A stretch of DNA of 64,000 bases from an uncultured Verrucomicrobia subdivision 3 bacterium (GTDB lineage: Bacteria; Verrucomicrobiota; Verrucomicrobiia; Limisphaerales; UBA11358). Positions 3,453 to 34,328 of this stretch are shown piece by piece (position 1 is the stretch's first letter; each line of letters begins with the position of its first letter). Location: positions 26,861 through 90,860 of the forward strand of contig CAIXBQ010000141.1 in the NCBI GenBank assembly GCA_903917705.1, written 5' to 3'. Position numbers and translations under genes: made by a program. The notes beneath the pieces were generated by a model. That model saw nothing but the letters and a program-made list of their open reading frames with translations. It did no database searches and was not told the origin of the DNA.

Positions 3453-4541
3453 TCAGTTGGATTGGCTCGGAGGTCCAGACGACTGCGCTGGTTCACGGCC
3501 GGTCTCCCCAAAATCTTTCTTTCCCGGCCCGAAGACGCGGGTGGCGTCATAGGGCACATTCGCCACCATCACATGCCAGGAGGCTTTGGCCAGTTTGCAG
3601 GCCAGCGACTTGGTCGCAATGACGGGATTGGTCTTCTGCTTCTTCCGGTCATAAAAGCGGCGGCATGGCTCATCGTGGCGGCAGGCAAAATGAGCCGCCT
3701 CCACAAACGCCCAGGCCAGATACTTGTTGCCGCATTTGCGGTTGTTCTCCCCTTTCTTCTTGTGGTTGCTCTGCCGAACACTTTTCACGCAGCGACAGTA
3801 GCTGGCAAAGTGCCCCGCGTCGGCGAAGCGTTCGGCGTCGCCGGTCTCCAAGGCGATGGTCAGCCCGAGGATCTTGCCGATGCCGGGCATTTCCTGCAGG
3901 CGCTGGTAGGCCGGCGATTTCTCCGCAACCTCCAGGATGTGCTTTTCAAGCTTCGTGATCGAGTCGGTGTAGTGGTCCATCAGGGTGATCTGCTCGCCGG
4001 CCAGCAGTTGATCGGCGGCCGCCGTGAACCGGGCTTGCGCCGCCTCCGGACTCATCGCCTTGACGCGCGCCAGCGGCACCCGCTGGCCCAGCGTCCGTTC
4101 GTTGAGGCTCTTGAAACTCAAGATCAGCGTGGTGCGCTGGCGCACCAGCAGCATCCGGCGGCGCAGCAGGTCGCGCACAGGCCGAAGCTTGCGGTCGTAA
4201 ATGTGGCCGGTGGGCAGGAGGTTCAGTCGCAGCAGTTCCGCCAGAAAGTAAGCATCCGAGACATCGTCGGTGTGCTTCTTGCCACTGTAGGGCTGCATGG
4301 CGGCAGGATTAGCCAGAACAACGTGATAGCCGTGATCCTGGAGTCCATCCACCAGCCAATACCAGTTGTAGGTGGACTCGACAGCGATTGTGTCGATGCG
4401 CTTTTTGTAAGGCTTGAGCAGTTGCAGGATGGCGGACAGGTCGCAAGCCAATTGCTTGTGCAGGAGGCGACGGCCGCTTTCATCCATGAGGCCGCATACG
4501 GCGTTGTTGCTGTGCAGGTCAATTCCGACCATAATCTTCAT
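3453..4541 (-). CDS. IS110-family (DEDD) transposase/recombinase
   Basis: Motifs MKIMVGIDLHSNN...IAVESTYNWYWL...VVLANPAA...MPGIGKILGLTIALETGDAERF...GKRQSNHKK-like C-terminal Transposase_20 region. The internal Met at 4541 is preceded by GGAGAA. The 35-codon upstream extension of the listed ORF is probably not translated. Confidence 0.85.
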   Translation of the reverse strand: MKIMVGIDLHSNNAVCGLMDESGRRLLHKQLACDLSAILQLLKPYKKRIDTIAVESTYNWYWLVDGLQDHGYHVVLANPAAMQPYSGKKHTDDVSDAYFLAELLRLNLLPTGHIYDRKLRPVRDLLRRRMLLVRQRTTLILSFKSLNERTLGQRVPLARVKAMSPEAAQARFTAAADQLLAGEQITLMDHYTDSITKLEKHILEVAEKSPAYQRLQEMPGIGKILGLTIALETGDAERFADAGHFASYCRCVKSVRQSNHKKKGENNRKCGNKYLAWAFVEAAHFACRHDEPCRRFYDRKKQKTNPVIATKSLACKLAKASWHVMVANVPYDATRVFGPGKKDFGETGREPAQSSGPPSQSN

Positions 4542-9049: not shown

Positions 9050-9234
9050 TTAGAGCATTTTCATAAATATTGCAGCCGTCCGGCTGGGACCAAAATGAAG
9101 GCGGTCTTTTCGAGTTTGGGCTTCGTTTCGGCTCAGTCGCAGGGTTACTTGGAACCTACTCCTTCGCCAAAGCCTCGCCAAAACTCGAAAATCCCTGCTC
9201 CGAACGGCTCCACTATTTCCTCAAACGCTCCAGC
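9050..9234 (+). mobile_element. MITE-like repeat, copy 1 (short variant with an internal deletion of about 63 bp)
   Basis: Aligns end to end with 33108..33355 (TTAGAGCATTTTCATAAATATTGCAGCC...GGCTCCACTATTTCCTCAAACGCTCCAGC). It lacks the central GACTTCCCAAGTCC...CATTGCAG segment. Confidence 0.7.
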
Positions 9235-9288: not shown

Positions 9289-12138
9289 TCAGGGCGACCG
9301 GCCGGATTGCAACAGCTGCACCGGGCCAAACAGGCCCGCCGGTTCCAGCGGAGACCGGGCCGTGAGCTTGCGGATATTGGTGCGGGTAAAACGCTGAGCT
9401 TTCGGCAGGCGGGCATCGCCGATGAGGCGGTTGGGCCAGAAGTTCACAACCTCGATCTGCAATTTGTTTTCGCCCGACTGCACCGCGGCTGTCACGTCCA
9501 CCCGCCACGGCGGGCACCAGAGGATGCCGCAGGATTTGCCATTCAACTTCACTTCGGCCAGTTCGCGCACATCGCCCAAGTCCAAAATTAATTTTGAGTT
9601 ATTAGTTTTGAGTTTTGAGGTGTCCAGGTGGAATGATTTTTCATACGTCGCCGTGCCGGAAAAATATTTAATGCCCGGCTCCGGCCGCGCCGGCCAGCTG
9701 ACCAGCGAATCAAACTGCGCGGTTTCCGGCCCGCCCCATTTCGGGTCGAAGTGCAGAGTCCACGCGCCGGAGATAGCTTGAGACGGTCTCAAATCCGGCG
9801 CATTGGACCGGGCGATGGCCGGATGCGCGGCGGCGGGTTCGCGAAAGACCACAAACCACGAACCGCACGGCGGGAAATCGAGCGGCACAAAAGTACGACC
9901 AGCCTGCTCCTCATAGGCAGCGGCAAACTGGTGCTCGCCGGTAACCGGGTTCCACAATTCCGGCACCCGGCCGGCCACACGAAAAGCAATGCGCGCGCCG
10001 GCAGAAAAGTTCGTGCGATTGGCGACGAAATATATTTCCGCGCCAGCCGCCGACCGGTGGACATAATCAAAATCACCCGCGCCAGGCGGGAATTCGCAAT
10101 CAGGTTTCAGGCCATCCGCCAAGAGCACTTCACGCGCGGATTTGCCGGCGATAACGCGGCCCCGGCCGACCCGGCCATCCCACAATTCATCGGCGAGGCG
10201 CTTCACCGCAGCATCGGTAGCCGCCATGTTTTCCAGCGTTTCGCCGCGGACCGGCCGAGGGCCAATGACCGTAGCGCCCGCGGCGACGAGTTCCTTGATC
10301 TTCTTCAACACCGGCAAGGAAATCTCGTCACGAACCGGCAAAACCAGCACGCGATAGCTGACGCCATCGGGCAAAACGATTTTTCCATCCTTGACGCCGG
10401 CGCGCTCAATCAGCGCCTCCGCCGTGATGACATCGTAATCGTAGCCGGGACCCACCTGCGCCGGGTCGGTGCGCTTATGCTGCGTGAAATTCGGAACATG
10501 GTCGCCGTAGTAATACAACACATCGGCGGAAAAAAGTCCCTGCTGCAGCATGAACTGGCAGCGGTCAATGTAGCTGAAAAACGGCGCGGATTTCTCCCAC
10601 CACGTCACCTTCGGATTCAAGTGGGTGCCGGCGAAATACTGCTGACCGGGAATCCCCGTTTCGTCCGGCGAACAGACGAACGCATGCCAAACGAGGACGT
10701 TCAAGCCTTCGCACAGCGCCTGGTCAAAGGCCGGCTTGAGATTGTCCCAGATTTTTTCCTGCCAGTGCGGCCCGATGGTGGTGAAGCCCTCGGCAAAAAC
10801 ATATTCGCGGCCGTACGTGTGAGCGGCGGACGCGGGCTGCTTGACGAAGAAACGGTTCGCGTCGCCGATGCGATGCGTCCACGACCACGCCCAAAACTCG
10901 CTCATCGGCGCGTCGTCCATGCCGAGGCAACGCTGGGCGTCAATCAGCACCGCGTGGGGCCCGCCGCTTTCGGGATGAAGGCCAACGCCGTGCCGGTGCG
11001 CAAGGTCGCGGAACAGGCGGTAATGATGGTCAATCGCCAGGTCGCCGAGGGTCTGGCGGTAATCAAAAAGAAAACGGTCGCTCTCGGCGCGCGAATTCAC
11101 GAGGCGCCCGGCAAGCACGGGGAGCCACGGAACCATAGAATAGCCCCGGCGCTTTTTGAATTCCTCGCGCAGATCGGGCGTCCAGTTGGCCAGTTCGATC
11201 TCCCAACTGTCGGTGTGCAGATACTTCAACGACTTTCCCGCAAGCGGGCCGGCGTCCTGCAACAGCGGCTCGACAATTTTGTCCCAATAATTTTGAAACG
11301 CCGTCGCGCTGTAAACATCGAGCGCAAAGCCGCCCCAGCCGTCGCTGCCGGTCGAGACATAGGCGTGGTCGCCGATGGTGTAGCCGAAACGCAGGATCTG
11401 CCACTCACCGGGTGGCGCATCCCAGCGCAGCGTGCCATCGGGGCCGACCAGTCCAGTCACATCGCGCACCCCGGAAACCTCCGCATCGGCTTCGCCGGCC
11501 TGCGCCGGGATCTCCGCGAACAAGGCCGACGACACCGGCGCGGAGAACGGCTGAAGCGATTCCTGCAGCGCCTTTTGCCTCCAGTTCTTCAGCGGCGCCG
11601 GCCGGGGCGCGGCTGGGATGGGATAAGCCACGATGGCGGCATCGCGGTAGAAGTTTTCCCGCGCCGGCGGCGCCGGCAGCCGGACGACCACATTGGAACC
11701 GCCGGAAATCGCCAGCTCCGACCAGACGTATTTCTTGGCGGCATCCTCCCGGGACACCACCGGGCCGCCCAGATTCCAGCCACTTTGGAGGTTCAGGCTG
11801 ATCTCCAGGCCCAGCCGGTCCGCTTCGCGCAGCGTGTGCTTATAAAGCTCGCGCCATGCCGGCGAGAAAAAAGCCGGGCCGGGCGGCACCGGATCATTGC
11901 CATCCTGCGCCGCGCCGTTAGCGTCGAAAATCACCGCCCCGCCGAACCCCTTGGCCCGCATCTGCTCCAGGTCATGCGTGATCGAAGCCCTGGTCACATT
12001 GCCGTTGAGCCACCACCAGTAGGCGCGGAGCTTCGCGGCATCAGGCGGATGCTGCCAGCCGTCGTCCAGCGATTCGGCGGCGGCGCGGCCCAGCGCCAGG
12101 GCAAACAGCACCGCGCAAAGTATCCGGGAATTTTTCAT
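9289..12138 (-). CDS. Secreted glycoside hydrolase, GH106-like (putative alpha-L-rhamnosidase-type family, often annotated as GH2 sugar-binding)
   Basis: 949-aa ORF. Signal peptide MKNSRILCAVLFALALGRAAA. N-terminal motif YWWWLNGNVT..ITHDLEQMRAKGFGG. C-terminal motif FSGTATYEKSF...AEVKLNG...NFWPNRLIGD. The family was assigned from memory of motifs only. Confidence 0.6.
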   Translation of the reverse strand: MKNSRILCAVLFALALGRAAAESLDDGWQHPPDAAKLRAYWWWLNGNVTRASITHDLEQMRAKGFGGAVIFDANGAAQDGNDPVPPGPAFFSPAWRELYKHTLREADRLGLEISLNLQSGWNLGGPVVSREDAAKKYVWSELAISGGSNVVVRLPAPPARENFYRDAAIVAYPIPAAPRPAPLKNWRQKALQESLQPFSAPVSSALFAEIPAQAGEADAEVSGVRDVTGLVGPDGTLRWDAPPGEWQILRFGYTIGDHAYVSTGSDGWGGFALDVYSATAFQNYWDKIVEPLLQDAGPLAGKSLKYLHTDSWEIELANWTPDLREEFKKRRGYSMVPWLPVLAGRLVNSRAESDRFLFDYRQTLGDLAIDHHYRLFRDLAHRHGVGLHPESGGPHAVLIDAQRCLGMDDAPMSEFWAWSWTHRIGDANRFFVKQPASAAHTYGREYVFAEGFTTIGPHWQEKIWDNLKPAFDQALCEGLNVLVWHAFVCSPDETGIPGQQYFAGTHLNPKVTWWEKSAPFFSYIDRCQFMLQQGLFSADVLYYYGDHVPNFTQHKRTDPAQVGPGYDYDVITAEALIERAGVKDGKIVLPDGVSYRVLVLPVRDEISLPVLKKIKELVAAGATVIGPRPVRGETLENMAATDAAVKRLADELWDGRVGRGRVIAGKSAREVLLADGLKPDCEFPPGAGDFDYVHRSAAGAEIYFVANRTNFSAGARIAFRVAGRVPELWNPVTGEHQFAAAYEEQAGRTFVPLDFPPCGSWFVVFREPAAAHPAIARSNAPDLRPSQAISGAWTLHFDPKWGGPETAQFDSLVSWPARPEPGIKYFSGTATYEKSFHLDTSKLKTNNSKLILDLGDVRELAEVKLNGKSCGILWCPPWRVDVTAAVQSGENKLQIEVVNFWPNRLIGDARLPKAQRFTRTNIRKLTARSPLEPAGLFGPVQLLQSGRSP

Positions 12139-12207: not shown

Positions 12208-12455
12208 TTAGAGCCTATCCATCAAATATGTAGCGATGCGCTGAGGTCCCCAGCGGACAGCGGTCTTTTTGGTTTTTGGCTTCGTTTCCGCTCAGTTTGA
12301 CTTCCCAAGTCCGGCGAGGATGATGCCCTGATCCGCCGATGCGCTCGCGCGCATTGCAGTCAGGGTTACTGGGAACCGGCGCCTTCCCGGAACCCTCGCC
12401 CAAAAGCAAAAATCCTCGCTGCCCATCGCCACATCTTTCCTGTCAATGCTTTATC
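12208..12455 (+). mobile_element. MITE-like repeat, copy 2 (full-length, with diverged ends)
   Basis: The central core of about 110 bp is nearly identical to copy 3 (GGCTTCGTTTCCGCTCAGTTTGACTTCCCAAGTCCGGCGAGGATGATGCCCTGAT..GCCGATGCGCTCGCGCGCATTGCAGTCAGGGTT). Same orientation as copies 1 and 3. Confidence 0.65.
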
Positions 12456-12487
12456 TCCGGGACAGGCTGAACTATTGTTTGCGGCGC

Positions 12488-12727
12488 ATGCCCGACAAAC
12501 ATTATCGCAGTCTCGTCAAAGCCGTCTCCTGGCGGCTCACCGGCAGTATGGACACCCTGCTCATCTCCTTCCTCATCACCGGGCAATTGCGATGGGCGCT
12601 GACCATCAGCGGCGTGGAATTGTTCACTAAAGTCGGGCTGTATTACGTGCACGAGCGCGTCTGGGAAAATCTGTCATTCGGCCGAGTGAAACAGCCCCCC
12701 AAAGACCGGCCCACCTTCGACATCTGA
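12488..12727 (+). CDS. DUF2061-family small membrane protein
   Basis: RSLVKAVSWRLTGSMDTLLISFLITG...GVELFTKVGLYYVHERVW matches the DUF2061 signature as I remember it. The start was taken at the internal Met (MPDKHYRS). Confidence 0.6.
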   Translation: MPDKHYRSLVKAVSWRLTGSMDTLLISFLITGQLRWALTISGVELFTKVGLYYVHERVWENLSFGRVKQPPKDRPTFDI

Positions 12728-33107: not shown

Positions 33108-33355
33108 TTTAGAGCATTTTTATAAATATTGTAGCCGCCCGGCCGAGACCAAAATGAGGGCGGTCTTTTTTGGTTTTGGCTTCGTTTCGGCTCAGTTTGA
33201 CTTCCCAAGTCCTGCGAGGATGATGCCCTGATGTGCCGATGCGCTCGCGCACATTGCAGTCAGGGTTGCTTGGAACCTGCTTCTTCGCCAAAGCCTCGCC
33301 AAAACCCAAAAATCCTCGCTCCGAGCGGCTACACTATTTCTTCAAACGCTCAAGC
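33108..33355 (+). mobile_element. MITE-like repeat, copy 3 (full-length reference copy, 248 bp)
   Basis: Imperfect 31-bp terminal inverted repeats (23 of 31 match): TTTAGAGCATTTTTATAAATATTGTAGCCGC / GCGGCTACACTATTTCTTCAAACGCTCAAGC. Internal hairpin plus T-tract and a nested central stem. Lies about 100 bp upstream of the cbcL-like start. Confidence 0.7.
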
Positions 33356-33427: not shown

Positions 33428-33976
33428 TCATCCAGCGCGGGAGGTGATGGGAGAAGGCAGGTGAATCGTCCGACCGGCCACCATGAACACGCCTTCACCC
33501 TGATGATGAATCGTTCGCGGACGTTTTCGCGACGGTTCAACCCAAGCCTGGACGACCTCAAGAATGAAGAAATTGTATTTGGTTACCATCGTTGCATCCA
33601 CGACTTTGCATTCCAGGCTGGCGTAGCACTCGGCGATGAGCGGGGCCTGCACGGAAACCGCTGTCTCGGGCGTGAGGCCGAAGGCCTTAAACTTGTCCAC
33701 CCGCCGGCCGGAAGCGTTTCCACAGGCGACCACCTGCTTCGCCAGCTCCACCGTCGGCAGGTTGATCACGCATTCCCCGGTCGCCCGCAAGGTGGCGAAC
33801 GAGCCGTTCCGGCTGCTGATCACGCAGCCCACCAAGGGCGGTTCAAATTCCATCATCGTATGCCACGACATGGGCATGACGTTCGCGCGCCCGGCGCGGG
33901 CCGTCGTGACCAGCACAACCGGACCGGGTTCAAGCAACCGGTAGACTTCGGACAAGGGGAAACTTTTTTTCTTCAT
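33428..33976 (-). CDS. Flavin reductase-like (FMN-binding split-barrel) protein
   Basis: LLEPGPVVLVTT...ANVMPMSWHTMMEFEPPLVGCVIS...IAECYASLECKV. Typical flavin reductase domain. Confidence 0.8.
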   Translation of the reverse strand: MKKKSFPLSEVYRLLEPGPVVLVTTARAGRANVMPMSWHTMMEFEPPLVGCVISSRNGSFATLRATGECVINLPTVELAKQVVACGNASGRRVDKFKAFGLTPETAVSVQAPLIAECYASLECKVVDATMVTKYNFFILEVVQAWVEPSRKRPRTIHHQGEGVFMVAGRTIHLPSPITSRAG

Positions 33977-34328
33977 ACCAGTGATTCCTTTTAAATGATT
34001 TTATAACCGTAACCGCGGGCTGGCACGGCCCGACCGGACAAAAGGCCGCCGAAACAACTTTGCATGGAGGAAGCTTCACCACCCGAATGGCGCGACCCTT
34101 TCATTTTGAATCCTGCGGTGGTCATGGACGGAAGTGTGCGCGGGAAAATTGCCAGCGTCAATTCCGGGACGAAACCCCGGCCCGGCTCCCGATGCCGCCG
34201 GCATCCGGCCAAAGGGCCGGTCGGTTCTGCCTCCTGCCCCAGCCATGTCGTGACCAGGAATAGCTTGCAGCGCGATAGCAATGAACATTGAAAACCTATG
34301 GAAGTGTGGCAAAGTTTCGCCAGCCACC

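Follow-up and report, generated by a model that had tools for sequence, protein, structure and literature searches.

A probable IS630-type family of foldback MITEs in an uncultured genus of Verrucomicrobia subdivision 3

Small mobile repeats of bacteria and the present family

Two families of small bacterial repeats come closest to the elements described here. RUP, from S. pneumoniae, has been tied to the insertion sequence IS630-Spn1 by the similarity of their ends and by its TA targets, while the Correia elements of Neisseria (CREE/NEMIS) exist in two forms, of ~155 bp and ~107 bp, the difference being an internal segment of 50 bp (PMC2229807). Effects on neighbouring genes are among the findings that PMC2649163 reports for Correia elements. 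The present repeats, found in a 64,000-nucleotide stretch of DNA (the window), resemble RUP in being small and non-coding, with IS630-like inverted ends, insertion sites that fit TA and many intergenic copies (PMC2229807), and in both families the link to a transposase rests on similarity of the ends. The two have no sequence relation, and RUP measures 107 bp whereas the unit here is ~180 bp long, has nested inverted repeats, a conserved inner module and two end types that go with two candidate transposase lineages, and is hosted by an uncultured genus of Verrucomicrobia subdivision 3. With Correia elements the repeats share the terminal TA, inverted ends around a conserved core, and long and short forms (PMC2229807); no sequence similarity between the two is expected, and an IHF site, a promoter and RNase III roles belong to the Correia side of the comparison, whereas candidate transposases with matching ends are available here.

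Two further groups share parts of this organisation. REP/REPIN sequences also have GTAG beside a hairpin in each arm and an inverted doublet architecture, but REPINs have neither long terminal inverted repeats nor TA flanks and are associated with Y1 transposase genes. The ERIC (IRU) repeats of enterobacteria are intergenic imperfect palindromes of similar size; additional internal segments may be present in ERIC copies at set places, and the copies show unusually high conservation. However, ERIC has very short inverted ends (7 bp; PMC2229807, Table 1) and no sequence relation to the present repeats, and the candidate mobilising transposase named in that survey belongs to RUP, not to ERIC. The family appears new as a family and ordinary as a kind, and is closest to RUP in behaviour and to Correia elements in architecture.

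We consider it highly probable that the repeats are a foldback non-autonomous DNA transposon (MITE) with a unit of ~180 bp that is mobilised in trans by IS630-type transposases. An earlier note, made from the window alone, had already described a MITE-like family, and this description is backed by copy number, inverted ends, TA flanks and the presence of matching IS630-family ISs in the genus. In the mechanism that we propose, the unit would fold back through outer repeats of ~33 bp, a variable left-arm hairpin, a 15-bp inner repeat and a small apical hairpin. IS630-family transposases (HTH + DDE_3) would bind the outer repeats in trans and excise the element, which would then insert at a TA within YTAR, the TA being duplicated. 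The two end types would each go with one of two diverged IS630 lineages found in the genus, with the inner module common to both, and the additional core of the long copies would be an extra segment at the foldback tip, a position that also holds other inserts and deletions.

Structure and neighbourhood of the copies

The window is part of one contig (C141) of an assembly of 3.76 Mb that is 66% complete and has 60% G+C. It contains three copies of the repeat in the same orientation (plus strand), as the earlier note had found, with exact limits, flanking dinucleotides included, of 9051..9232, 12209..12453 and 33110..33353. Copy 1 is a short form of 182 bp with its flanking dinucleotides, a TA on the left (9051-9052) and a degenerate CA on the right (9231-9232). 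Copy 2 is a long form with TA on both sides (12209-12210 and 12452-12453), and copy 3, the reference copy, is a long form flanked by TA on the left (33110-33111) and a degenerate AA on the right (33352-33353). Two end types occur in this genome, type A (TAGAGCATTTTCATAAATACTGTAGCC...) in copies 1 and 3 and type B (TAGAGCATATCCATCAAATATGTAGCG...) in copy 2.

The terminal inverted repeats of copy 3 lie at 33112..33144 (plus strand, beginning GAGCATTTTTATAAATATTGTAGCC) and 33319..33351 (minus strand). They are imperfect, as previously described, but by our own count they match at 26 of 33 positions and not at 23 of 31. The right repeat matches the end of a group-3 IS630-family IS at 23 of 25 positions (L226). 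In the left arm, a GC stem, CCGCCC/GGGCGG (arms 33135-33140 and 33158-33163), encloses a 17-nt loop and is followed by TCTTTTTT, the whole feature spanning 33135..33171 on the plus strand. The block GGCTTCGTTTC(G/C)GCTCAGT is present in all three copies, in agreement with the earlier description. Further inward, the halves of a second inverted repeat (TTTTTTGGTTTTGGC, 33166..33180, and GCCAAAACCCAAAAA, 33298..33312, both given on the plus strand) enclose an inner module, ~95 bp long in the short form, that is common to all subfamilies. Across the family this 15-bp inner repeat reads TTTTTGGGTTTTGGC / GCCAAAACCCAAAAA.

The near-identical core that had been noticed in the two long copies is a segment of 64-66 bp: an optional 64-bp apical insert at 33197..33260 (plus strand) in copy 3, with hairpins GACTT-CCC-AAGTC and ATGCGC-loop-GCGCA, and a 94% identical insert at 12297..12360 (plus strand) in copy 2. 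Copy 1 lacks precisely this segment. CAGT borders the core on both sides, an arrangement compatible with a deletion between short repeats as well as with an insertion.

A combined BLAST and end search of the assembly recovered ~16 complete or almost complete copies, together with fragments, on 14 contigs, far more than would arise by chance. The short form of ~182 bp prevails, a point on which the earlier list was incomplete, and the core is found in only three copies, the two of the window and one on contig C77. It occurs with both end types and, by BLAST of the assembly, exclusively within the MITE. One further copy, on C80, retains just the opening ~21 nt of the core before it runs straight into the right arm, which shows that the long form does undergo internal deletions. 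Copies within the genome diverge by ~8-12%, and therefore give no sign of very recent activity. The earlier observation that the core is better conserved than the termini is explained by copies 2 and 3 belonging to two different end-type subfamilies, and it is this that makes the middle seem the better conserved part.

The elements of the family have terminal inverted repeats, are dispersed in many copies through varied genomic contexts and measure 182-245 bp, under the 300-bp bound for a bacterial MITE, and their open reading frames are mechanical only. The ATG that opens a frame in some copies is absent from end-type B, and indels of 1-2 nt occur in the conserved T-runs. A hidden ORF was rejected, given that no start is conserved and the conservation pattern is not codon-like.

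Copy 1 lies 56 bp downstream of the stop of a 949-aa gene (9289-12138, minus strand), and the ATG of a 67-aa ORF without a Pfam match abuts it. Copy 2 sits between the start of the 949-aa gene (12138, minus strand) and a DUF2061 gene. The first ATG that mechanical calling assigns to this ORF (12446-12727) is at 12446-12448 and falls within the right inverted repeat of the copy; a likelier start is the in-frame ATG at 12488. At other loci, the TAG or CTA of the element ends often terminates adjoining ORFs. Copy 3 is placed 73 bp past the stop of a flavin-reductase gene (33428-33976, minus strand) and 105 bp upstream of the start of a multihaem cytochrome gene (33004, minus strand), the first gene of a cluster, and a promoter-like site at 33083-33054 is 27 bp from its left end. 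The right-hand neighbour is assigned as a minus-strand flavin reductase by Pfam (Flavin_Reduct, E = 4.5e-34); a plus-strand ORF that overlaps it (33461-33994) is not the gene. As copy 3 is directly upstream of the multihaem cytochrome cluster, it may bear on the expression of that cluster.

The 949-aa gene is flanked by two copies in the same orientation, copy 1 (type A) on its left and copy 2 (type B) on its right. This layout resembles a composite transposon, and the same spacing is seen in contigs of other samples. An identical 949-aa gene on another contig has a Pfam match to Glyco_hydro_106.

Ends, target site, distribution and candidate transposases

A profile built from the short copies of this genome matched 93 distinct elements of other genomes from end to end, and across subfamilies the left and right ends of these elements co-vary. 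The element proper is GAGC...GCTC, with sharp ends of the form TA|GAGC...GCTC|TA. Among the 82 elements whose ends could be scored, TA is present on the left of 68, on the right of 66 and on both sides of 58; T or C precedes the left TA in 76/82, and G or A follows the right TA in 80/82. There is no complementarity between these two outer bases (Fisher p = 0.23), and composition beyond them is random. Such a flank pattern is the signature of insertion at a TA within a YTAR target. Duplication of TA is established for IS630-family elements, and these flanks together with that knowledge of the family suggest that TA would be duplicated on insertion here as well.

No empty site was found in two exact-pattern scans of metagenome contigs, and exact-protein look-ups of the flanking genes in contigs of other samples returned filled sites only. 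Orthologous loci in other species, which are only ~80% identical, are non-syntenic. One metagenome contig (L249; ENA ERZ27313589, k141_1060170) appeared to carry a short form at the copy 3 locus and was rejected as an assembly chimera. It joins the flavin-reductase flank of copy 3 to the MITE copy and flank of contig C85 (tail 99.6% identical), and was formed through the shared right arm.

By BLAST, the element is present in 39 of 163 genomes of the uncultured Verrucomicrobia genus, about a quarter, and in none of the 16 genomes searched from other families of the order. A scan with the 19-nt block, using one genome per species, found at least 113 stretches, and nearly all of the matches listed have Verrucomicrobia subdivision 3, Limisphaerales or Pedosphaera labels. 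Complete copies also appear among the listed matches under record titles of other groups (e.g. L056, L057, L062, L080, L086, L119), namely Bifidobacteriaceae, Chitinophaga pinensis, Sulfotelmatobacter, Baltobacteraceae and Dongiaceae. Two readings fit: the assemblies are Verrucomicrobia that were mislabelled or mis-binned, or the element crosses phyla. A match under Rhodocyclaceae (L066) is a chance 19-mer and not the element. Viral contigs were considered as a vehicle and set aside, as the conserved 19-mer had no match there.

A search with a truncated DDE_3 protein fragment identified multi-copy ISs of ~1.0 kb in 50 of the 163 genomes of the genus. They encode HTH_23 + DDE_3 proteins, are flanked by TA in a manner that fits YTAR, and have inverted ends of 26-28 bp that match the ends of the MITE. 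Group 1 IS ends (GAGCATTTCCATAAATCATATAGCG) resemble end-type B and group 3 ends (GAGCGTTTCAATAAATAGTGTAGCCA) resemble end-type A; relative to the group-1-type query fragment, group 3 proteins are ~42-46% identical and group 1 proteins ~75%. Similarity between MITE and IS stops after the ends of ~27 bp. A complete 5.9-Mb chromosome contains ~20 matches to the MITE ends and a truncated DDE_3 gene, the source of the query fragment, whose 3' end runs into a matching inverted end. From the matching ends we infer that these IS630-type transposases mobilise the element.

As the earlier note had said of the window, no transposase with matching ends is encoded there, and none, as a gene or as an IS, was found anywhere in the 66%-complete assembly; candidate parents are found in other genomes of the genus. 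The two DDE_3 genes of the assembly (C18, C118) were rejected as a parent IS because their ends do not match. A copy-rich genome of the genus (G010) has no DDE_3 match at all. Multi-copy elements are often lost from short-read genomes during assembly or binning, so the missing IS in the present assembly means little. The window does encode an IS110-family transposase (4110-4529, minus strand; DEDD_Tnp_IS110, 65 bits) in an open frame of 421 aa, and the rest of the assembly has four more DEDD_Tnp_IS110 matches, one of them weak; none is tied to the MITE.

Annotation of this family gives a clean identity to a recurrent repeat in an uncultured and environmentally common group of Verrucomicrobia, and points to its likely transposases. 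It also accounts for contig breaks, for one chimeric contig and for spurious start and stop codons at gene ends.

The conserved inner module and alternative readings

The short form folds as a single long imperfect hairpin (z = -2.2), and the long form has z = -4.0. Across 74 short elements, conservation extends over the opening six bases and the end of the outer repeat, and variation is greatest in the left-arm stem region. The T-rich inner repeat, the apical hairpin stem and the block CCTTCGCCAAAGCCTCGCCAAAACCCAAAAATCC are conserved in the same elements, where conservation of the 19-nt block is an effect of how the sample was selected. In a genus-wide BLAST search free of this bias, many matches span just positions 51-144 of 182, and across subfamilies the ends are less well conserved than the inner module. 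Simple selfish spread alone does not account for the difference.

In the apical hairpin of the short form, CAGG(G)TT-loop-AACCTG, 95% of cells are paired, and three of the six pairs have changed on both sides, which none of 500 shuffles reaches; these pair changes represent few events among related sequences. Other subfamilies have unrelated hairpins at the apical position, such as CCCGCC-GT-GGCGGG. Near-palindromes can gain matching changes by template switching during replication, without selection. Because the events are few and related, and template switching may have contributed, the data on the apical hairpin show that a hairpin is kept and not why.

The core was compared in 13 sequences from five genomes, the carriers being the present genome (G000, three copies), G132 (five), G006 (two), G180 (three) and the genome of element L142. 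The stem ATGCGC/GCGCAT persists in most sequences. Of the nested core stems that the earlier note had proposed, the outer stem CCCTGA/TCAGGG is disrupted by one-sided changes, and CCAAG/CTTGG is not conserved: it is impossible in G132, which keeps the core but lacks CTTGG. The stem GACTT/AAGTC shows two double compensatory changes and two one-sided breaks. Elsewhere the apical position holds other segments, a different one of 58 bp in G010 and segments of 35 nt to 130 nt in further genomes.

One G010 copy with the 58-bp insert (L116, 2008-3797; contig CAIQEI010000067.1) is split by an IS110-family element of ~1.5 kb that encodes a 448-aa protein (DEDD_Tnp_IS110 + Transposase_20) behind a non-coding leader of ~190 nt, and GGTAG stands at each junction. 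The genome has at least two further copies of this long form that are unsplit (C117, C66), and a third full-length match lies on C111. With one copy split and unsplit copies present, the MITE variant of G010 presents the IS110 with repeated landing sites. A link between the 64-bp core and IS110 was considered and rejected, as the IS110 copies of the present genome are unrelated to either MITE or core.

Several alternative readings attribute a function to all or part of the element. In one, the host has co-opted the element or its inner module, on top of its being a MITE, as a two-way transcription stop or insulator, with an inward-pointing hairpin and T-run in each arm halting transcription from either side. 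Both arms have strongly conserved T-runs of the TCTTTTTGGGTTTTGG type, and the left-arm stem is usually retained although its sequence varies between subfamilies. When genes are called strictly, gene 3' ends make up 60 of the 85 flanks that could be scored, against an expected 50%, and a cruder count found few divergent-promoter contexts (5/67). The 3'-end excess fits either a stop signal or plain selection against promoter hits, however, such a bias being expected of any insertion that is harmful in promoters, and two of the three window copies are directly upstream of gene starts. The hairpin of copy 3, which the earlier note had called terminator-like, does consist of CCGCCC/GGGCGG followed by a T-run, but its 17-nt loop compares with 3-8 nt for an intrinsic terminator, a pattern scan of the relevant strand called no terminator in any window copy, and the right-arm hairpins are weak (-1 to -5 kcal/mol). 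An orientation bias in tandem contexts, 26 versus 11 with a crude gene caller, became 5 versus 6 with stricter calling and was dismissed. On balance we regard co-option as a stop or insulator as rather unlikely. A second reading, in which the core directs transcription out of the right side of the element and long copies are kept where they drive a downstream gene, draws on a promoter-like match, TTGACT-16-GATGAT (9 of 12 consensus positions, plus strand), in both long copies of the window (33197-33224 in copy 3 and 12297-12324 in copy 2). A plausible gene start lies to the right of copy 2, of the C77 copy and of three long copies in relatives (L185, L187 and L040). On the other hand, the right side of copy 3 points at the 3' end of the flavin-reductase gene, only ~5 of the 12 long copies are directed at a genuine gene start by inspection with antisense ORFs excluded, and the -10 part is not conserved in more distant cores (L141, L119, L142). 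We consider a promoter cassette highly unlikely.

That the core or the whole inner module is a structured functional RNA, either a small RNA or a cis-acting element, riding on the MITE is in our judgement very unlikely, despite the folding of the long form far beyond its shuffles, the two-sided changes in GACTT/AAGTC and in the apical hairpin, the persistence of ATGCGC/GCGCAT and the substitution of unrelated hairpins at the apex. Good folding scores are common to any foldback transposon, the lineages that contribute are few, template switching can mimic compensation, and two of the core stems are lost or broken as described above. An Rfam scan of the whole window at the gathering score gave no match, and a scan of the copy 3 region at E <= 10 gave a single chance match (12.5 bits against a gathering score of 50). 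The core is missing from most copies and from most of the genomes that bear the element. The suggestion of the earlier note that the conserved core is a functional RNA or protein-binding module is not supported, and the 64-bp core is an optional segment at the foldback tip with no demonstrated function of its own. What does stand is a weaker form of the idea, as the inner module and an apical hairpin are conserved from one subfamily to another and the elements favour gene 3' ends. A broader version, in which the inner module of ~95 bp, perhaps with the 64-bp insert, is a selected functional unit that has stayed almost unchanged while the ends have diverged along with the IS630 lineages (~45% amino-acid identity to the group-1-type query), seems to us unlikely; on that reading the unit would be an RNA or DNA structure with a role in stopping or processing transcripts or in binding a host protein. 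If it were true, the MITE would be the vehicle of a useful cassette rather than pure junk, and if conservation of the inner module does reflect selection, the family would be a case of a MITE with a functional cassette, as has been proposed for Correia elements. Finally, the GTAG and following hairpin-forming stretch in each arm, and three Y1_Tnp genes in the present genome, could suggest REP/REPIN-type repeats moved by a RAYT (Y1 tyrosine transposase) with GTAG as the recognition tetranucleotide. This is exceedingly improbable and is contradicted by the absence of any repeat copy at the three Y1_Tnp loci (C142, C15, C69), as well as by long terminal inverted repeats and sharp TA-flanked ends that match those of IS630-family ISs. 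We retain the foldback MITE of IS630 type as the preferred reading, and any effect of its copies on neighbouring genes is, like mobilisation itself, inferred.

In addition to the apical segments, extra small palindromic inserts are found in the conserved right block of some subfamilies (L108, L114, L128, L129, L145, L160 and L166; also L142 and L176). Examples include GGCCGATGATCGGCACCGCTC, and CCGGGCCGGACGGGCC immediately before the A-run. The element seems to accumulate, at set positions, short inserts that can form hairpins.
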